Shown here: in pieces, positions 6,594 to 63,950 of the stretch
Layout of the letters: each line of letters begins with the position of its first letter
How positions within the stretch are numbered: the first letter of the stretch is position 1
Sequence record: PZ452594.1
Direction: 5' to 3' (one strand)
DNA: 64,000 nt
DNA from: a phage
Program-made: the position numbers and the translations under genes
Notes under the pieces: generated by a model
The model's input: the letters and a program-made list of their open reading frames with translations, nothing else
Database searches by the model: none
Told to the model about the DNA's origin: nothing

Positions 6594-8771
6594 TTAGGCC
6601 GCAAGGGCCTTCATAGTTTTGGCGATTTGGGAAACTTCATCATCACTTAAAGAGTTGCGATATCCGATGAAGTCGGAAACAATACGGAATTTCTTGGTAA
6701 ACTCAGCAACCATTTTATCACTGTTTTTTGAAGCATTATTTGATAATACATCAAAAAGATTAGTTACTGTCCAGATGTCATGACCGATGGTATCTTTTCC
6801 ACCATTGAAATATACGCCCCGTAATGAACTAACTATATTAGCGAGTCGTGTATATTCTTCAGAAACATCATCTGTACTGAAATACTTCATCATAAAATCT
6901 AGTTCAGGATATTTAATAATTTTATCAATATATCGTTGAGCTGAACTTGAATAACCTACATACTTATCATAATCTACATCATCAAAAGCATCTACATATA
7001 AATCACGCAAAGCTTCAAAAATACATTGGCACTGACCGAGTTCTTTTACCTTTTTCTGTAAAAGCGGACGAATAACATAAAATTCATTAATGCCAATAAG
7101 ATTAGCCATACGAATCAAAATATTCATAGATGGATGACAAAGAGATGTAGTACCATCCATAGAGAAAATATCAGAACGATGCATATACGCTACATAACCA
7201 GTAATTTCATCTGCTTCTGATGTGAGCGTAAATAATTCCTCTTTTTCCCAACGCCCATCTTTAATTTCAAACTTAAACGCTGTAGCAGCTTTAGGACGAG
7301 GAGCTTTACTTTTAACTACCTTTGGAATATAACTTTTTACTAAAGCTTCAATTTCTGACAAATAATGAATGTTAACTTCATCACTTTCAAACATCGCCAT
7401 AATATCAGGGAGTAAATCAATCTGCGATTCTACTTCTGGGTTAATAAACAGAAGGCGTTCGTTATGATGAATATTTAAAGTGTTATTAAATTCACTATCA
7501 TCTAACGCATGTGCTAATCCACGGACAATATTAACACGATTTTTAATATTATCAATAACGATATTAATTTTTGTTGTATTAATACCAAACAGACGATAAC
7601 TTGATGCAACGGCTGAAGTTTCATGACTTTGCTTAATGCGCTTCAGTCGAGGGTCAAGATTTACTTCATACACAACTCCTGCATTGCATAACTTACTATC
7701 AGGTTCAAACATGCTTTGCATCTTCTTATATGACAGATTTTTAGTCGTAAATTTGACTGAATTACTAATCATATAATCTCGAGCAGAATACCCCATCTTC
7801 ATCAATTCACGATATGTATGACGGGGAGATGTGGATTCTTTAAATCGTTTTACATCTTCATTAAATGCTTTCTCACTGAGTTCTTTAACTCGTTCAATAA
7901 TATTTTTACGAGTACGATCATCCAGTGAAAGAGCCTCGCGAGATGGAGCAATATCAAGTGAACCCATTGGAAACTTAATGTAATTCACTTCATTGCGAAT
8001 GCTTAGCCAGTTACGGTCTCTAATAACACCATCGATAGGATAAACAATACCGCCATAGATAGCATATAATCCACCACGATCAGGCCAGTATCTTTCTGGA
8101 TTTACACCATAATAATCATCAAAATCCGGAAAATAATCAATTTCACGGTCAAGACCATTAATGATAGCCAAATCTTTGAACGGTCGCATGATATAAGAAA
8201 CTTCATAAGCAAAGTTTCTAAAGTCTTTTTCTTCAACTGGAACTACGATTTCAATACCAGTTTTATCATCTGGACCCATTTCTTTTACGAATGTAGGTTT
8301 AATCTGTGGACCATCACCATCCATGTAAGCTACATAACCACGAATTTCACCTTTATGATACGAAGTAATACTAAACGTATCAGTATAACTAAATGGAGAT
8401 TTAGAACCTAAACCAAATCCGCCAATAAAGTCATTAGATTCGGCTTTCGATGAACTGAAGTATGAATTATACAACCCAGGAGAATTATCATCACCTTGAA
8501 TATCAAAATCACTCATACCCGGACCAAAATCTCGACAAACAAATCGTGGATCTAATCGTCCTGGAACTTGAATGATAAATTTTTCAGGATTTCCATTGAG
8601 AGCATGGGCATCAATCATGTTGGTAATCAATTCACGGACTACTGCGCGAATCTTGTTTGTATACAAATCAGATGACAGAATTTTAAATACTTTAGGATTT
8701 GCTGCGATGCTAAATGCTTTTGATTTAGCACCATTACCAAGAATTGTTTCTTTTTCAGTGGTGATAATCAT
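6594..8771 (-). CDS. rIIA: rIIA rapid-lysis protein (725 aa)
   Basis: [30 protein letters not shown]... recognised as T4 rIIA; 725 aa; 11 nt upstream of rIIB. Confidence 0.93.
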
Positions 8772-8781
8772 AATTTCCTCA

Positions 8782-8985
8782 TTAATTCATATTGCGTTTA
8801 ATAACTTCAGCAACTTCTAGTAGTTCATCTTTAGTTGCGGTGTCGGATTGAATTTTATCTCTAATATCCTTAAAGCGGTTTTTAAACTCTTCGGCTTCTC
8901 CCATATCGAAAAAGCGTTGAATGATTCTATATTCTCGATGAACTGCTTTATCAAAAAGTTCTAAATTTACTCTGTATGATTTCAT
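8782..8985 (-). CDS. rIIA.1-like small protein (67 aa)
   Basis: ORF track; position between 39 and rIIA as for T4 rIIA.1. Confidence 0.6.
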
Positions 8986-9010
8986 TTCAATATCCTCATT
9001 TGCCCAATTA

Positions 9011-9040
9011 ATTATACCACATCCTTGTGGTAAAGTAAAC
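9011..9040 (-). promoter_or_regulatory. T4-type early promoter upstream of rIIA.1/rIIA
   Basis: GTTTAC (rc 9035-9040), 18-nt spacer, TATAAT (rc 9011-9016); overlaps gene 39 stop. Confidence 0.45.
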
Positions 9041-10860
9041 TACTGGCTCATCCATTCTTTGCGAAGGTCAGCATTATCTCCCATGAGCATTTCAAAAAGC
9101 TCTTTCCAGTTCTCAGGAAGTTTAACAACATCATATACTGGGTTTTGAATCATCTCACGATATTCAGATTTTTCTAAAGAGCCAAGTCCCTTAATATAAC
9201 GGATGCTATGTTTAGGTAGAGCATCTTTAGCACTCTCATATTCAGCGACTGTATAAAACCATTCTTGTTTTTTACCGACCTGAGCGATGATTACAGGAGT
9301 TTTGACAAAGCGAATTCTTCCTTGTTCAAACAGTTCTGGCCAATTACTAAAAAATCCGAGCAGAGAAGGATAAATGCTTCCTAGACCATCATGGTCAGCA
9401 TCAGTCATAATAGCAATATTATGATAATTCAAGTTTTCAGCTTTTTCACCGAGAACTAGACCAGTGATTGCGCAAATATCAAATAGTTCTTTGTTTTTAA
9501 GCATATCTGCATAAGACATACCCCAACTGTTGAGAACTTTACCACGTAATGGATAACCACCATGAAGTTCTTTATCACGAACATCAATAAGATATCCGAT
9601 AGCAGAATCACCCTCAGTCAAGAAAAGAGTAGTGTCAGCATCTTTACCACAAAGATTCGCTTTGATATGTTTATGAACCTTAGCTTTAGAAGCCTTTTTA
9701 GCTGCTTTAGTTTCTGCTGCTTTTTCTGCCGCCAATTTACGAGCCAAAGCAGCTTCGATAATCGGCATTAGAATTGCTTCATTATTTAGAATAGCACGTG
9801 AAATCTTTTTAGCATCAAGCTGAATATGACTACGGATTTCACCAAATGGAGAAGTCAAACGCTCTTTAGTTTGAGAATCAAATCGCATGTTTTTCATATC
9901 ACGAACAAACATAACGATAGTCAAACATTCTTTGACACGCGCTTTAGTCACATCAATTTTGAACTTACGTTTGATTTGTGGAATAAGGTCTTCACAAATA
10001 TCATCCATAACACAGTCAATGTGATGGCCACCATTCTTAGTGTGGATGTTATTCACATAAGTTAATTGACGAAATCCATCCGGTGAACGACCAACCGCAA
10101 TAGAACAATTTTCTTGTTCTTGAACGATAGCATGCTCATCATATTGGCGTGCATATTTCTTAAAATTGCCCTGAACCTTTTTACCATTAAAGGTAAATTG
10201 AATATCAGGATAAACAACAGCAAGTGTCTGGAGACGATCTAGTGTAATGTCAAGATAAACTTGGGACAGCTCATTAGTTTCAAATGACATAAAATCAGGA
10301 ATGAAAGTAACACGAGTTCCTTTCCATTTTCCTGGAATAGTTTCCCATGATTTATTTTCCATGCCATTTGAACAACGAACTACAATATTATTTTGACCAT
10401 CGCCAGTTTCACCGACAAACATCACAGAAAAAATGTTAGTTAAACTAGAACCAACACCATTCATACCACCGGTGACACGTTCTTTATCATCACCAAAGTT
10501 ACCACCCGCTTTTGGAATAGTCCAAGCAGCAACTGGACCAGGAATTTCTTCACCGGTAGGTGTTTTAACCATCGCTTGTGGAATACCACGACCGTTATCT
10601 TCAACTGTTACTTGATTGTTTTTGATGGTAACATTAATTTTATTCGCGAATTTAAACTTAGTACGAATACCTTCATCTACTGAGTTATCGATAATTTCAT
10701 CAATAAGCTTAACAAGACCAGGTACATACTGAACACTTTCCCATTTACCAAACAGAAAGCGCTCATGCATTTCATTAGCAGAAGAGCCAATGTACATGCC
10801 ACTACGCTTTTTGATATGTTCAATATCGCTCAGAATTTTAATTTCATTCTTAATCATCAC
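9040..10860 (-). CDS. 39: DNA topoisomerase II large (ATPase) subunit gp39, uninterrupted (606 aa)
   Basis: GHKL motif EDNGRGIP and TOPRIM LFLTEGDSA; one continuous ORF spanning what are genes 39 and 60 in T4. Confidence 0.92.
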   Translation of the reverse strand: MMIKNEIKILSDIEHIKKRSGMYIGSSANEMHERFLFGKWESVQYVPGLVKLIDEIIDNSVDEGIRTKFKFANKINVTIKNNQVTVEDNGRGIPQAMVKTPTGEEIPGPVAAWTIPKAGGNFGDDKERVTGGMNGVGSSLTNIFSVMFVGETGDGQNNIVVRCSNGMENKSWETIPGKWKGTRVTFIPDFMSFETNELSQVYLDITLDRLQTLAVVYPDIQFTFNGKKVQGNFKKYARQYDEHAIVQEQENCSIAVGRSPDGFRQLTYVNNIHTKNGGHHIDCVMDDICEDLIPQIKRKFKIDVTKARVKECLTIVMFVRDMKNMRFDSQTKERLTSPFGEIRSHIQLDAKKISRAILNNEAILMPIIEAALARKLAAEKAAETKAAKKASKAKVHKHIKANLCGKDADTTLFLTEGDSAIGYLIDVRDKELHGGYPLRGKVLNSWGMSYADMLKNKELFDICAITGLVLGEKAENLNYHNIAIMTDADHDGLGSIYPSLLGFFSNWPELFEQGRIRFVKTPVIIAQVGKKQEWFYTVAEYESAKDALPKHSIRYIKGLGSLEKSEYREMIQNPVYDVVKLPENWKELFEMLMGDNADLRKEWMSQ

Positions 10861-12165: not shown

Positions 12166-12413
12166 TAATAAATTTCCTTCCAGTAAGTTGTGCCATCTTC
12201 AGTAATTTCACGAAATACACCGTAAATTGGTTGTTTATCACCAACCTTTTCATACACATAAACCGAAGTCAAGTGAGTAAACTTGATGGTGTGTTCCTTT
12301 TGAACTACTACCAAATCTGGATCGAATAATACATCTTCAAATTCGTCATTAGTGCAATTCTGAACAATTTTACGTTTCATTACAATTTCCTCATTAATTG
12401 AACAGTGGAGCAA
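12165..12413 (-). CDS. hypothetical protein (82 aa)
   Basis: ORF track; overlaps neighbours by a few nt. Confidence 0.45.
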
Positions 12414-12675
12414 TGCGTTTCAGAAGAGTAGTAGCACCTTTGGCGAATTTTACATCATGAAAAACAGTTTCTTCTTCTGTAACAACTCGAACTTTAATAT
12501 TTTCACAATCCCAATTTTTACGAGCAATCTTCAAAAGCTGCAGTAAATCTTTACATTCAGCAATATCGATAACACATCCACGAGAATCTTCCATTATCGC
12601 ACGATAACCGTAAGCCATACCATAATCGTTGAAAGATTGCTCGATGATAATTAAGTTTTCCATTTTATTCTCCAA
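12394..12675 (-). CDS. hypothetical protein (93 aa)
   Basis: ORF track; preceded by SD GGAGAATAAA and by a 12-bp inverted repeat tcagtagttgat/atcaactactga (12689-12729). Confidence 0.45.
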   Translation of the reverse strand: MENKMENLIIIEQSFNDYGMAYGYRAIMEDSRGCVIDIAECKDLLQLLKIARKNWDCENIKVRVVTEEETVFHDVKFAKGATTLLKRIAPLFN

Positions 12676-12760
12676 GTTGTTTTCTGTATCAGTAGTTGAT
12701 ATTGATATAGTACCATAATCAACTACTGATGTATATAGTTTTATGAAAAAATTTTAAACT

Positions 12761-57335: not shown

Positions 57336-58304
57336 TTATTTCAGAAGAGTAACCTCAGCGATTTCTTCCCAACCGTTTTTGTCGGTCATAATAAAGTCAG
57401 CAAGATAAAGAGCAGTACGCAGTGAAACATTACGTAAACGATTAACATTGACTTTCATCCATGATAATGCTTTATAAGTTTCTTCATCAGAAAGACCGCG
57501 CTTTTGCATCATGTCAGTTGAAAGAATAACATCTTCAACCCTGACCATAATTTCTTCATTAGTGTGAACACCCAAATCCAAATAAACTGAGCGGGACACT
57601 AATGCTTGTAAATGTGGAGCAAGTTTAGTACCACGGTCTAATTCGCGGTCAATGTCAACGTTTGTGATAAAAACAATCGTTCCTTTAAATTCAAACTCAC
57701 GCTCAATGCCTTTTTCTTCTAAGTAAGAAGATGCGGTGCTCCAGCAGACTTTACGGGTCTCTCCAGTGTCCAGAGCAGCTTTCAGAAGATTAAGAATGTC
57801 CATATCAGAGAAAACATCCACATCATCAATCAAAAGGACAGAATTCTCTTCACGATTATTCCAAAGCTGCTCATAAAGACCAATACCAGAGATTTTACCA
57901 TTAATGCTTTTATATTCAATGTATCCAATATCATTTGCTTTATTTAAAGCTTTATCTAAAGAATACGTTTTACCAATACCTGCTGCACCAGAGATAATTA
58001 ATGAACGAATGTTTCCGTTAATAATACCATTCGTCATCATTCCCATAACATTAAATCTTTTATTAATGCGGGTTTTCATATCTTCATACGATTCTTTAAC
58101 TTCTTCAACTTTTACACCATCATATGAAATGTCTGATTTGTAAACCCAAACACCGCGACGTTTACCGTCAATTTCAACAAAAACTTTACCATCTCCTTGT
58201 GCATCTACCGGAGCATTATCTGGGAACCATTCGCCTAAGAGCTCAAAAGTTCCAGAAATTTCTTTACCGAAGTAGATACCCTTATTGATAGTTACAGTTT
58301 TCAT
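57336..58304 (-). CDS. P-loop NTPase (322 aa)
   Basis: Walker A GAAGIGKTYS and Walker B VLLIDDVD. Confidence 0.6.
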   Translation of the reverse strand: MKTVTINKGIYFGKEISGTFELLGEWFPDNAPVDAQGDGKVFVEIDGKRRGVWVYKSDISYDGVKVEEVKESYEDMKTRINKRFNVMGMMTNGIINGNIRSLIISGAAGIGKTYSLDKALNKANDIGYIEYKSINGKISGIGLYEQLWNNREENSVLLIDDVDVFSDMDILNLLKAALDTGETRKVCWSTASSYLEEKGIEREFEFKGTIVFITNVDIDRELDRGTKLAPHLQALVSRSVYLDLGVHTNEEIMVRVEDVILSTDMMQKRGLSDEETYKALSWMKVNVNRLRNVSLRTALYLADFIMTDKNGWEEIAEVTLLK

Positions 58305-58361: not shown

Positions 58362-58562
58362 TTATTTTGACATTTCTTCGATGTCACGACGATACCCGTC
58401 ACGAACTTCACGAAGAGCTTCAAGGCCACACATAGGCTCGATACCAGTAATGTGAACTTGATTAATCTGATACTCTACATCTTCTAACTGAGCGAAAACA
58501 TAACGACGTTCAGCTGCACAACCAGATTTAGCTTTACCGAAACGTTTATTCAAAGTAGTCAT
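58362..58562 (-). CDS. hypothetical protein (66 aa)
   Basis: ORF track; downstream of promoter 58601-58630. Confidence 0.45.
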   Translation of the reverse strand: MTTLNKRFGKAKSGCAAERRYVFAQLEDVEYQINQVHITGIEPMCGLEALREVRDGYRRDIEEMSK

Positions 58563-58600
58563 TTTGTATCTCCAATTTACTCATTTGTTTTGATAGTTGT

Positions 58601-58630
58601 ATAGTACCATAAAGCTTTATGCTTGTAAAC
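58601..58630 (-). promoter_or_regulatory. T4-type early promoter
   Basis: GTTTAC (rc 58625-58630), 18-nt spacer, TACTAT (rc 58601-58606). Confidence 0.45.
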
Positions 58631-58649
58631 AGTTTTGTGAAAAAATTTT

Positions 58650-58679
58650 TGAAATAAAAAAGGGAGCCCGAAGGCTCCC
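58650..58679 (-). terminator. intrinsic terminator
   Basis: Hairpin gggagcc-cgaa-ggctccc (58662-58679; UUCG loop in RNA) followed by U-run (plus A-run 58654-58661). Confidence 0.6.
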
Positions 58680-58681
58680 TA

Positions 58682-59695
58682 TCATTTATAATAACTTCGG
58701 TGGTTTTCAAGATAGACCTTCTCAAGGAAGTCATCCCAGAAACTCATGTCTACTTTTTGCTGCATACCGTTCTTAGAAGCTTCAGTAGATGCTGCTTCTA
58801 CTTGATCAACCACATCTTCCAAAAACTCTTGAACTGTTTTAAATGGATGTTTACCCAACTTCACGTCGAGAATAAATGGAGCATCTTGGAGTGGATAAAT
58901 CAAGTCGCCAGTTTTGTAAATTTCCAATAGTTGAAGTCCACCACGACAAGCATGACTTAGTGCTTTCCAATCAATACCTTCATTAGCTTCGGCTTTACGA
59001 GCACGTTCACCATATTCAGCATCTAATTTGTTCAGTGACTGCTTAAGCTCAATAAGAGAAAGTGTTGTCTGATATTTACGACCCAACACAGTGTAGAACG
59101 TTTGCGGGCCTGTTTTCTCGTGATTATGGAACACCCATTCACAGAATTCGTTTTCTGGAAGACGATGCTTAATATCTTCAACTTTAGTGCGACGCTGCTT
59201 AATAGAACCATCTTCTTGGTAATCAATCCACTGCTCAGGAATTTGATTAACTACTTTCAATACATCACGTAATGCAGCCAAACGAGAACCCTTGACACCG
59301 TATTTAGAAGCTTGCTTGCGAACATATCCTAAATAGGATTTCATGTTAGTCGTATAAAAACGAGAACGGTTGTCTTGAATAAACTTCCACACGTCAGGCA
59401 AATCAGATTTAACCACTAGTTCAGGTGGAGTGTGAAGCATATCCAATGCTACAGTTTCACCATCTGCTGCTAATTTAAAGAAATATTTAAGACTGTATAG
59501 TTCATGGTCAATATCATCTTTAGTGTTTTTAGATGATGTGTTGTTGGTATTTTTACTCATATGCTCTTTAACATTTCCGATAAGAATATCGCGAGCAGGA
59601 GGAACAAAGATTTCTTTAAAATCTACATCAGATTCTGGGGTAGAAGTTCCATAAAGATGACTACCAAAATAGCTTTTCATTACTGTTTTCATCAT
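58682..59695 (-). CDS. Pol-beta-superfamily nucleotidyltransferase-like protein (337 aa)
   Basis: N-terminal GSHLYGTSTPESDVDF fits the hG[GS]x9-13 D-x-[DE] nucleotidyltransferase signature; followed by terminator. Confidence 0.5.
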   Translation of the reverse strand: MMKTVMKSYFGSHLYGTSTPESDVDFKEIFVPPARDILIGNVKEHMSKNTNNTSSKNTKDDIDHELYSLKYFFKLAADGETVALDMLHTPPELVVKSDLPDVWKFIQDNRSRFYTTNMKSYLGYVRKQASKYGVKGSRLAALRDVLKVVNQIPEQWIDYQEDGSIKQRRTKVEDIKHRLPENEFCEWVFHNHEKTGPQTFYTVLGRKYQTTLSLIELKQSLNKLDAEYGERARKAEANEGIDWKALSHACRGGLQLLEIYKTGDLIYPLQDAPFILDVKLGKHPFKTVQEFLEDVVDQVEAASTEASKNGMQQKVDMSFWDDFLEKVYLENHRSYYK

Positions 59696-60153
59696 TCAGC
59701 CTTATATTCAATAACAGGACATACTTTAGCTTTACGCGCTTTTAAAAATTCAACGATAACCGATTTCTTGGGTTGAATAGGAGGTAAACCTTTATACGCC
59801 CTATCAATATTTTCTACGTGTAAAGCATAATCCTTTTTCCATTTATAATCTTTATATTTTTCACGCAAATGTGCAGGAATAACAAATGAACCGATAATAA
59901 GTAAAACAACCAAAATCGCAAGTATAAATGCTGATGGAAGCAAAGTCCATAAACTACCAAAAATAATCCAACGCTGTAGGCTTTCTGCACAAATAATTGT
60001 TAGCCCTACGAGTATAGCACATCCAAAAATAGAAACGAAAAATGTAGGAATGGCAATAGACCAAAAATATGCGCATAGTGTCTTAGGTCGTTGCCATTCA
60101 TCGTTAAACAATTTGAATAATTTATAGTGCCAAGAGTTTTCATTAATAATCAT
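59692..60153 (-). CDS. membrane protein (153 aa)
   Basis: Two or three hydrophobic helices (FWSIAIPTFFVSIFGCAILVGLTIICA; LLPSAFILAILVVLLIIGSFVI). Confidence 0.5.
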   Translation of the reverse strand: MIINENSWHYKLFKLFNDEWQRPKTLCAYFWSIAIPTFFVSIFGCAILVGLTIICAESLQRWIIFGSLWTLLPSAFILAILVVLLIIGSFVIPAHLREKYKDYKWKKDYALHVENIDRAYKGLPPIQPKKSVIVEFLKARKAKVCPVIEYKAE

Positions 60154-60155
60154 AA

Positions 60156-60677
60156 TTATACTTTCATTGAAGGTGTAACAGTTGTTAAATACTTAATCAT
60201 AGCTTCAGCTTCTGATTTTGATAATGAAATTTCTCCACTGTTTTGACGAATAGAAATAAAATCCGGATGACGGTCACCACCAGCTTTTAAAACACACATA
60301 TAAGTATCAACTTCGCCTTCAATATTTGAAATGATTGAAGCAGTTCCACATGAATGCGGTTTTTGATAAATCAACACAGCTTTTCTTCCGCCATTTGACT
60401 GTTCATAGGCTTTTAATACATCAAACAAATCAGTTCTTTTATCAATAGCTAAAATGTTATTTTCATCTTCAATGTTAAATCCTTCGGATACTTCATAAAG
60501 TGTTACCCATAAATCACCAATGTCAATAACAGCATTTACTTTTCCACGGCTTTCAAGAGTATGACAAATTTTCTTGATTTCGTCATAACTCATTTTAATA
60601 ATATCATCTCCTTGACTAAGAAAGATGTCATTTTTAAATTCAACACGAATTAAACCGCTTTCACTTGAAATAAACAT
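60156..60677 (-). CDS. hypothetical protein (173 aa), paralogue of next gene
   Basis: C-terminus SEAEAMIKYLTTVTPSMKV resembles DEAIALKTYLDSVIPTMISK of ORF 60684-61238. Confidence 0.5.
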   Translation of the reverse strand: MFISSESGLIRVEFKNDIFLSQGDDIIKMSYDEIKKICHTLESRGKVNAVIDIGDLWVTLYEVSEGFNIEDENNILAIDKRTDLFDVLKAYEQSNGGRKAVLIYQKPHSCGTASIISNIEGEVDTYMCVLKAGGDRHPDFISIRQNSGEISLSKSEAEAMIKYLTTVTPSMKV

Positions 60678-60683
60678 ATTTCC

Positions 60684-61238
60684 TCACTTTGAAATCATAG
60701 TTGGAATAACAGAATCAAGATAAGTCTTTAGTGCAATAGCTTCGTCTTTGGTAAATGTGACAATATGTGCTCGAGAATCATCAATTTGGCGAACAAGTAC
60801 GACATCGCCATCTTCATAAGAAGTCTTGACATCCAAAGTCGTAGTATAATTTGCAGCTACTGGATTAATAATGCTAGCACCGCGATCTTTAGCCCATTGA
60901 AGTTTAGCCTTTTCGGGTGTTTCGACTGTTTCAGATTCCAAGAATTCTTTCACCTTGGCAACGAATGTTGCCCAATTGTTGATAGAAAGACACATAAATT
61001 CAGTTTCAATATTACCGCCGTAAAGGCCACGATAAAAACGAACTTGGAGGTCGCCTGTAATATTAGTTACACCGGTAACTCCTGAGGGAGCATAAGATAA
61101 AATCGCAGCCAGTTCCATAGGAAGAATAGTAATACTATCGTCTTCCTGCGTCAGAACGTATACATTATCACGTTTTTCGATAACCAGGTCACCGAACAAA
61201 TCAGTTGTTTCAATTACAGCTTTCATATTATTTACCAA
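60684..61238 (-). CDS. hypothetical protein (184 aa), paralogue of previous gene
   Basis: ORF track; shared C-terminal motif. Confidence 0.5.
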   Translation of the reverse strand: MVNNMKAVIETTDLFGDLVIEKRDNVYVLTQEDDSITILPMELAAILSYAPSGVTGVTNITGDLQVRFYRGLYGGNIETEFMCLSINNWATFVAKVKEFLESETVETPEKAKLQWAKDRGASIINPVAANYTTTLDVKTSYEDGDVVLVRQIDDSRAHIVTFTKDEAIALKTYLDSVIPTMISK

Positions 61239-62390: not shown

Positions 62391-62420
62391 TAAAATGAAA
62401 AAAGTCTCCCGAAGGAGACT
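62391..62420 (-). terminator. intrinsic terminator after rI operon
   Basis: Hairpin agtctcc-cgaa-ggagact (62403-62420) followed by U-run (plus A-run 62398-62402). Confidence 0.55.
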
Positions 62421-62424
62421 AATG

Positions 62425-62811
62425 TTATTCGAGGGAAAGAAGATACTTACTCTGGTAAAACATTCCAGTAATATCATCTATCGTGCTTTGGATGGCTGGA
62501 GGCATTTCTTTATAAATGCTGTTAGATTGGTCTAGTATGCGATCAATCATTTTAATTGTGTCGGTAGGAAGTTTACTGGCATCTGGAATTGAAGGTGTGT
62601 ATTTTCTACCAGAATACCCCAAATATTGCTCACCAAATTTATCAATCAAATCTGGCAACTCGGAGAAAATAAAATCGTATGCTTTATGTCTAGCATAACT
62701 TTTAGTTTCAAAATGTGCAGAATGAAAATAAGCTTGTGCAGCCATTAATAAACCTAAGTATTCATCTGCCTTTGAAGGTTTTCCACTTTGTGAAAAGTCG
62801 CTGAATTTCAT
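62425..62811 (-). CDS. hypothetical protein (128 aa), rI.-1-like position
   Basis: ORF track; ATGA overlap with rI. Confidence 0.5.
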
Positions 62812-63101
62812 TCAGTCTCCAATTTAATGTTCATAATTCTAGCGTATGATTGTGCCATCTCCGCGCCTCGTTCTATACATTCAAAATCAGAAGAGCACGG
62901 GTCATTTTTATAGGTCGTTCTCATAAAACTATAGAATTGTTCAGACGATTCTACGCTTTTATTTTCAAAAAGCATATAAACGTGCCTAATACCAGATTCC
63001 ATAAATTTATCAAAATGAGAATCGACATTCGCTTCAATTGATGGAGATAAAACAAATGACAATCCTAGCATGGCAAAAAGTGCCGTTGCTTTTAAGGCCA
63101 T
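62808..63101 (-). CDS. rI: lysis-inhibition regulator rI (97 aa)
   Basis: MALKATALFAMLGLSFVLSPSIEANVDSHFDKFMESGIRHVYMLF... recognised as T4 rI; N-terminal signal-anchor. Confidence 0.9.
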   Translation of the reverse strand: MALKATALFAMLGLSFVLSPSIEANVDSHFDKFMESGIRHVYMLFENKSVESSEQFYSFMRTTYKNDPCSSDFECIERGAEMAQSYARIMNIKLETE

Positions 63102-63368: not shown

Positions 63369-63950
63369 CTAACCAAGCTTTTTAGTTAATTCATTCCAAT
63401 GTTTTCTACACAAAGAAACATAAATTTCATCACCAATACAGATTTGATTACCTTCTTTAACTGGTGTTCCATCTTCCATTAATCGAGCTGTCATAATCGC
63501 TTTTTTACCGCAATGACAAACTGCTTTTAGTTCAATAAGTTTATCTGCAATCGCTAAAAGTTCTTTAGAACCTTCAAACAATTTTCCAGCGAAATCAGTC
63601 CTTAATCCATAAGCCATAACAGGAACATTATATGTATCAACAATTCGGCTCAATTGATGCACTTGTTCAGTTTTTAAAAACTGGGCTTCATCTACAAATA
63701 CGCAATGAATATCTTTTTGTGCTTCAGCCCATTTATAGAACTCGAAAATATCCATATCATCTGTGATAATATTCGCTTCCTGTTTAATTCCAATGCGAGA
63801 AACGACTTCACAGACAGAGTCGCGAGTATCAATAGCAGGCTTAAGAACTAATACACTCATTCCACGTTCTTTATAATTATGTGCAGCAGTCAAAAGAGAA
63901 GCAGATTTTCCAGCATTCATTGCTGCATAAGTAAAAATTAAACTCGCCAT
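63369..63950 (-). CDS. tk: thymidine kinase (193 aa)
   Basis: P-loop AAMNAGKS, zinc ribbon CHCGKK...C; recognised as T4 Tk. Confidence 0.92.
   Translation of the reverse strand: MASLIFTYAAMNAGKSASLLTAAHNYKERGMSVLVLKPAIDTRDSVCEVVSRIGIKQEANIITDDMDIFEFYKWAEAQKDIHCVFVDEAQFLKTEQVHQLSRIVDTYNVPVMAYGLRTDFAGKLFEGSKELLAIADKLIELKAVCHCGKKAIMTARLMEDGTPVKEGNQICIGDEIYVSLCRKHWNELTKKLG

Follow-up and report, generated by a model that had tools for sequence, protein, structure and literature searches.

The window analyzed here, a stretch of 64,000 nucleotides (sequence record PZ452594.1), belongs to a T4-like phage of the genus Tequatrovirus. Positions 58682..59695 of its minus strand form an open reading frame (ORF) of 337 aa when counted from the first ATG; the N-terminus reads MMKTVMKSYFGSHLYGTSTPESDVDFKEIF in the ORF list and is also given as MMKTVMKSYFGSHLYGTSTPESDVDF. 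A preliminary description of the gene had reported its coordinates, strand, length and a nucleotidyltransferase motif, all of which were recovered from the ORF list and the translation. A minor correction concerns the start codon: in relatives, T4 and phiD1 among them, the annotated start is the second ATG (59692), which results in a protein of 336 aa. With either ATG, the start overlaps or directly adjoins the TGA of the upstream ORF. Plus-strand ORFs covering the gene (43-76 aa) were treated as spurious, because the minus-strand frame is kept at full length in hundreds of homologues.

Judged by its sequence, the window gene is T4 nrdC.11, which is known and already assigned to a family in the literature: 329 of the 336 residues (98%) are identical to T4 NrdC.11 (NP_049709.1), labeled "nucleotidyltransferase" in RefSeq. 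At the DNA level, the gene is 98.8% identical to that of Yersinia phage phiD1, the surrounding 24 kb show 97-98% identity to phages such as MLF4 and Kelasse, and megablast matches to the gene were found in 729 phage records. At E ≤1e-3, the protein family comprises 3,430 representatives (50%-identity clusters), of which 826 remain at E ≤1e-30; the best-scoring representatives are mostly near end-to-end matches of 300-360 aa. Many NrdC.11 orthologues in GenBank/UniProt are named "thioredoxin", apparently taken from the gene label nrdC, and at least one record is named "putative HNH homing endonuclease", perhaps via the neighboring mobD. Both labels are at odds with the match of NrdC.11 to Pfam family PF10127 described below.

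nrdC.11 is an accessory gene and dispensable in the laboratory; T4 is viable after a deletion spanning nrdC.11 to mobD.3 (PMC9825161). Its earlier placement in the nrdC-rI stretch agrees with an rI-like ORF at 62808..63101 and a tk-like ORF at 63369..63950. Directly upstream, an ORF of 153 aa (59692..60153, minus strand), predicted to encode a membrane protein (phrog_944, "membrane protein"), overlaps with its TGA the nrdC.11 start (ATGATG) and occupies the position of the HNH homing endonuclease gene mobD in T4. This membrane-protein gene was found upstream of nrdC.11 in 42 viral and no bacterial loci, i.e., the link is one of synteny with no demonstrated functional pair. Further upstream, two y05I-like paralogues of 173 and 184 aa (60156-60677 and 60684-61238, minus strand; Pfam T4_y05I_N and T4_y05I_C, "putative transcription factor") form a tandem duplication. 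Downstream of nrdC.11 follow an ORF of 66 aa (58362..58562) and the nrdC.10 orthologue (57336-58304, minus strand), a 322-aa P-loop ATPase (GAAGIGKT) with weak AAA/STAND similarity and a full-length match to phrog_1250, a family of unknown function. nrdC.10 adjoins nrdC.11 in T4-like loci only (34 viral, 0 bacterial), and a functional link between the two was rejected since only synteny connects them.

The intergenic region 58563-58681 contains, according to a consensus scan, both a terminator-like and a promoter-like element. One base past the TGA of nrdC.11, an intrinsic-terminator-like hairpin (58661..58680, minus strand) consists of an 8-bp G+C-rich stem and a UUCG loop, followed by UUUUUUAUUU with a U-run; its folding energy is -17.7 kcal/mol (z -3.8 vs. 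shuffled sequences), and it probably acts as a terminator. An early-type promoter-like site for the 66-aa ORF (58629->58601) comprises GTTTACA, a 17-nt spacer and a TG-extended TACTAT. Since this hairpin and the promoter-like site of the next gene follow nrdC.11, nrdC.11 appears to be the final gene of its transcription unit, which may start at a promoter-like site at 61574->61546. A second terminator-like hairpin with UUCG loop and U-run is present at 62403-62420 (minus strand), just downstream of an ORF of 128 aa (62425..62811). In addition, 43 viral loci, the majority T4-like, have a Macro-domain gene at a distance of up to ~8 kb from nrdC.11; in phiD1 (L001), this gene lies at 12281-12760 (g119, "phosphatase") in the tk.4 position. 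A link of the Macro gene to the processing of RNA 2'-phosphate or ADP-ribose is possible.

Family assignment, catalytic residues and predicted structure

The window protein matches PF10127 ("RlaP, RNA repair pathway DNA polymerase beta family") with 44.7 bits at a cutoff of 23 (E 1.7e-11). The match spans aa 7-135 only, which is the N-terminal ~40% of the protein, and profile positions 23-142 of 249. A second family, phrog_388 ("nucleotidyltransferase"), is matched end to end (E 1e-136). Conservation was assessed in an alignment of 52 homologues, 34-55% identical to the window protein, and 51 of these 52 clade members pass the RlaP model. Invariant in all 52 are G11, S12, G16, S22, D23, D25, N57 and D63 and, toward the C-terminus, Y132, R231, K244, H248, R251 and P268. 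The catalytic signature G11-S12...D23-V24-D25 is encoded at 59621..59665 (minus strand, translation GSHLYGTSTPESDVD). Recognition of this GS...DxD signature was the core of the preliminary description, and the matches to PF10127 and phrog_388 as well as its invariance in the 52 homologues show that it is not due to chance. The reading as a nucleotidyltransferase of the Pol-beta superfamily is supported and is narrowed by PF10127 to the RlaP family.

Profile-profile comparison using hhalign with a set of canonical RlaP proteins (n=11, ~255-275 aa) aligned aa 4-93 with a probability of 94.9% and an E-value of 4e-8. GS, DxD and D63 fall onto the canonical invariants S24/G25, D37, D39 and D73. As D63 (59507..59509, minus strand; at the start of strand 62-68, translation DID) is aligned to the invariant D73, it is predicted to be the third metal-binding carboxylate. 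Three acidic residues bind metal in the Pol-beta fold (PMC12776372), and a metal-binding role of D63 would follow from this rule by analogy.

An AlphaFold2 (AF2) model calculated with the 52-sequence alignment reached a pLDDT of 94.2 and a pTM of 0.83. It shows an alpha/beta core (aa 3-96), helices (aa 100-150), a beta-rich subdomain (aa 155-209) and five helices (aa 214-336). AF2, hhalign and Pfam together delimit the N-terminal Pol-beta nucleotidyltransferase core to aa 1-96 (59408..59695, minus strand). The core begins with a strand, GS, a helix and a strand carrying DxD, followed by more strands and two helices; the secondary structure elements in the model are E3-10, H12-15, E24-31, E45-49, E62-68 and H69-87. 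A Foldseek comparison of the model with the PDB, as proposed in the preliminary description, returned Pol-beta-fold transferases as leading matches (3c18, HalB, kanamycin nucleotidyltransferase, LinB, Tam41, AadA and MNT), all of them weak (best E 3e-3). Sequence searches of a PDB copy without the structure of PfRlaP, a Pseudomonas RlaP, found no match for either the window protein or canonical RlaP, and the 52-sequence profile yielded three chance-level matches only (E 0.77-1.6) in this copy. Family membership, the full catalytic signature and the predicted fold are properties of the window protein itself, and NrdC.11 is very probably an active transferase of the RlaP family.

The insertion of the NrdC.11 clade and the C-terminal half

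Compared to canonical RlaP, the NrdC.11 clade carries an insertion of ~100 aa (aa ~137-236). Within the insertion lies the beta-rich subdomain (aa 154-212; 59060..59236, minus strand), which is modeled at a pLDDT of 95-98 and is the least conserved segment of the protein, with a mean top-residue frequency of 0.27 and not a single column at ≥90%. The spacing between the motifs KYG (aa 131-133) and DWKAxSHAxR (aa 242-251) amounts to 92-130 residues in the clade. In canonical RlaP, we chose the invariant Y128 and K148 as reference points for the corresponding stretch, and these lie only ~20 residues apart.

The C-terminal helical domain contains the motif DWKALSHACR (aa 242-251; 58943..58972, minus strand), in which K244, H248 and R251 are invariant. 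When aa 137-236 were cut out in silico, the profile alignment to canonical RlaP extended from 82 to 147 columns (E 1e-9), and only then did K244...H248...R251 fall onto the canonical K148...Y152...R155. The C-terminal part alone did not match canonical RlaP significantly (E 0.13, or 0.011 without the insert) and, therefore, the equivalence of K244/H248/R251 and K148/Y152/R155, possibly as a shared motif K-x3-[YH]-x2-R, is suggestive only. The DWKALSHACR motif may have a role in NTP or RNA binding. A HEPN RNase in the C-terminal domain was considered and rejected, as no Rx4-6H motif is conserved; the conserved pattern is H248-x2-R251.

Homologous loci and RNA repair genes

Neighborhoods of nrdC.11 homologues were inspected in 80 bacterial or archaeal loci, the proteins being 32-53% identical to the window protein. 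RtcB, RtcA, Hen1, bacterial Pnkp, an Rnl1-type ligase or Ro60/TROVE is found within 8 kb in 18 of the 80 loci, while about three quarters of the bacterial loci have no RNA repair gene within reach. Ro60/TROVE modules are present in five bacterial loci. The NrdC.11 clade is linked to RNA repair genes in cellular genomes, and this linkage would represent a strong enrichment if such genes were as rare in bacterial genomes as we assume. In five non-T4-like viral contigs, Rnl1, Pnkp or RtcB is likewise within reach.

Canonical RlaP is encoded in 12 of the 80 loci, usually immediately downstream of the NrdC.11-like gene, and in at least 10 bacterial operons the two types are direct neighbors. A Nitrosospira locus (L036) has the order Ro60 - RtcB - RtcA - NrdC.11-like - RlaP - Hen1 ... 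Pnkp, with the pair at 8004-8975 and 8979-9746. A second operon (L059) reads Pnkp - NrdC.11-like - RlaP - Macro, with the pair at 8001-8984 and 8981-9802 and the Macro gene (9813-10277) closing the operon. Head-to-tail pairs within RNA repair operons, which sometimes overlap, also occur in L006, L020, L054, L055, L060, L072 and L073. Two different enzymes of the RlaP family in one operon suggest a division of labor. Moreover, the ~100 extra amino acids and the frequent co-occurrence with canonical RlaP suggest that the NrdC.11 type is non-redundant and possibly differs in activity.

Two further loci combine the NrdC.11-like gene with a ligase. In L050, it starts 4 bp after a gene for a kinase-phosphatase-Rnl1 fusion; in L005 (62-3803), NrdC.11-like, T4-type Pnkp and T4-type Rnl1 genes occur together on a 4-kb contig. 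The latter is binned as a Bathyarchaeota metagenome-assembled genome but is possibly a piece of a virus that ended up in an archaeal bin. An unusually long NrdC.11-like ORF of 501 aa (L075, 4866-6371) is either an N-terminal fusion or a start codon artifact of the crude ORF caller.

No RNA ligase or kinase gene was found near nrdC.11 in the window or in T4-like loci. In phiD1, polynucleotide kinase (Pnkp) and RNA ligase 1 (Rnl1) are encoded ~80 kb from nrdC.11, and the association with Pnkp and Rnl1 in T4-like genomes is, accordingly, in trans only.

Possible role in tRNA repair and comparison with known systems

The family has been noticed before. In 2006, nrdC.11 orthologues were matched to the nucleotidyltransferase domain COG3541 (PMC1524935). 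In 2016, Burroughs and Aravind gave PF10127 the name RlaP for its linkage to RNA ligases and, as their work is summarized in later publications, they predicted that lost nucleotides are restored before ligation (via PMC7824862, PMC12776372). A preprint of December 2025 by Carruthers, Fatma and Huang characterized two Pseudomonas RlaPs, PfRlaP and PaRlaP, and states that no RlaP had been assayed before (PMC12776372). Both enzymes extend RNA 3'-OH ends by one or two NMPs (or dNMPs), prefer Mn2+ or Co2+ and favor a mimic of a broken tRNA; they are inactive on DNA and protein, leaving E. coli proteins unlabeled (PMC12776372). A tRNA with one nucleotide missing from the anticodon loop partly regained its aminoacylation; with untemplated addition, the right nucleotide would be put back in only a fraction of cases (PMC12776372). 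In the structure of PfRlaP, the transferase domain is joined by a helical domain and a terminal helix (PMC12776372). An RlaP would accordingly be expected to have a cleft formed by its N-terminal transferase and C-terminal helical domains, the last helix packing back onto the N-terminal domain. The same study placed T4 NrdC.11 in cluster 5 of PF10127 (PMC12776372). Our literature search on nrdC.11, RlaP and PF10127 found no activity or phenotype for the phage protein.

On balance, we favor with moderate confidence that NrdC.11 is an enzyme which restores nucleotides at RNA 3' ends and supports tRNA repair in T4. D23, D25 and D63 would hold two divalent metal ions, probably Mn2+, and one or two NMPs, supplied by NTPs, would be joined to the 3'-OH at an RNA break. 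The likeliest substrate would be a tRNA broken in the anticodon loop, whose 5' half would receive back the nucleotides trimmed by RloC-type "excising" anticodon nucleases. In the order of events, T4 Pnkp would remove the 2',3'-cyclic or 3' phosphate, NrdC.11 would act next, and T4 RNA ligase 1 would reseal the break. The RNA substrate, the addition of 1-2 nt and the Mn2+ dependence are carried over from the Pseudomonas enzymes and would hold for NrdC.11 by analogy; its role would be one of counter-defense. For this chemistry, the T4 setting appears more coherent than one with RtcB, because the 3'-OH product of RlaP suits 5'-phosphate ligases such as Rnl1 (PMC12776372). Several observations weigh against this role: the Pfam match is confined to the N-terminal ~40%, the C-terminal part by itself has no significant similarity to canonical RlaP, the clade with its ~100 extra residues often accompanies a canonical RlaP, ligase and kinase genes are associated with nrdC.11 of T4-like phages in trans only, most bacterial loci have no RNA repair gene within reach, untemplated addition would not always put back the right nucleotide, and T4 tolerates the loss of the gene in the laboratory. 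A more specific proposal, which we consider rather doubtful, is that the clade has a distinct specificity, e.g., recognition of the tRNA anticodon stem or a choice of the restored nucleotide, and that T4 NrdC.11 is the third component of the Pnkp/Rnl1 pathway, directed against RloC.

Four other explanations were weighed, all of which rest only on resemblance at the fold level or on the loose specificity of the family. NrdC.11 could be an offensive enzyme adding nucleotides to the 3' ends of intact host RNAs (tRNA CCA, mRNA, sRNA) and disabling them, in a takeover resembling MenT or AbiEii. MenT-type toxins extend tRNA 3' ends, and nrdC.11 lies within a stretch of T4 accessory genes. In assays of the Pseudomonas RlaPs, full-length tRNAs and RNAs of rRNA size were labeled as well, with little NTP specificity (PMC12776372), which would suit such an activity. 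However, the bacterial homologues reside in repair operons (RtcB, RtcA, Pnkp, Hen1, Ro60) and not in toxin-antitoxin pairs, NrdC.11 matched no family among the PADLOC defense models at E ≤0.1 (PADLOC-DB dated 2023), and RlaP prefers the mimic of a damaged tRNA (PMC12776372); offensive tailing is, in our view, unlikely. The PADLOC search likewise gave no match that would place NrdC.11 among CD-NTases (CBASS), AbiEii or other defense transferases. The repair operons argue against a HalB-like synthase, whose product, a protein-primed or free oligonucleotide, would serve as signal or decoy, e.g., by keeping nucleotide-gated defense effectors shut, and we hold this to be highly improbable. They also speak against AMPylation of proteins (DrrA, GlnE or MntA-like) and against the modification of a metabolite or an antibiotic-like compound (ANT-like). 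Matches to such enzymes are weak and at the fold level, the scores for NTP_transf_2 (13.6 bits, cutoff 21) and NCBIfam MntA (13.4 bits, cutoff 60) stay below threshold, no HEPN toxin gene was found beside nrdC.11 (its neighbors encode the membrane protein, the 66-aa ORF and the AAA ATPase), and the protein has no invariant Rx4-6H motif. Together with the unlabeled E. coli proteins in the Pseudomonas RlaP assays (PMC12776372), this makes a protein or small-molecule target very unlikely.

The chemistry could also be the same and the lesion a different one: NrdC.11 might act on tRNAs trimmed at the CCA end, on precursors of phage tRNAs, or on rRNA or mRNA that has been cut. T4 has tRNA genes of its own, and the Ro60/TROVE modules in five bacterial loci point to a general handling of damaged or misfolded RNA. 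The weak substrate specificity of the family (PMC12776372) would fit this reading as well. Our observations agree with this reading as well as with the favored one; neighborhoods with ligase and Pnkp favor the repair of breaks ending in ligation, and another lesion as the main target seems quite unlikely.

If NrdC.11 does restore nucleotides removed by RloC-type nucleases, it would complete the textbook pathway of T4, in which PrrC is countered by Pnkp and Rnl1, and would explain the answer of T4-like phages to a host strategy proposed to be repair-proof in 2008-2012. The idea of countering RloC is already published as a prediction, the chemistry has been demonstrated for bacterial members, and the gene is re-identified here. 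Our own addition, of modest value, is to describe the clade-specific insertion and how genes of the NrdC.11 type pair in tandem with those of canonical RlaP.

Compared to T4 NrdC.11, the window protein represents the same gene; its length agrees, and in both genomes nrdC.11 is flanked by nrdC.10 and the mobD.x/rI genes. It differs by seven substitutions, and the T4 translation also contains one ambiguous position (X); position 61 is N in T4 and D in the window. The window phage also differs from T4 by its membrane-protein ORF in place of mobD. With canonical RlaP (PF10127 cluster 1a), NrdC.11 shares the Pol-beta core with aligned GS, DxD and third Asp, in its AF2 model, the succession of an N-terminal transferase domain and a helical C-terminal domain, and the linkage of bacterial homologues to RtcB, RtcA, Pnkp and Hen1. 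In contrast, proteins of the NrdC.11 type are longer (~320-340 aa vs. ~255-275 aa), they carry the ~100 extra residues including the beta subdomain and a "KNT" loop with the invariant N57, and their C-terminal half aligns with the canonical profile only when the insert is removed. Hailong HalB (PDB 9dbh, 9dbj) is 14-16% identical to the window protein; it is a tetramer of ~217-aa subunits whose product, tyrosine-primed poly-dA, guards the HalA channel. A HalA-like partner was not identified at nrdC.11, and the upstream membrane protein was rejected for this part due to its viral-only synteny. Finally, the kanamycin/aminoglycoside nucleotidyltransferases ANT(4'), AadA and LinB and the MNT antitoxins resemble NrdC.11 in having a helical bundle after the minimal transferase core.
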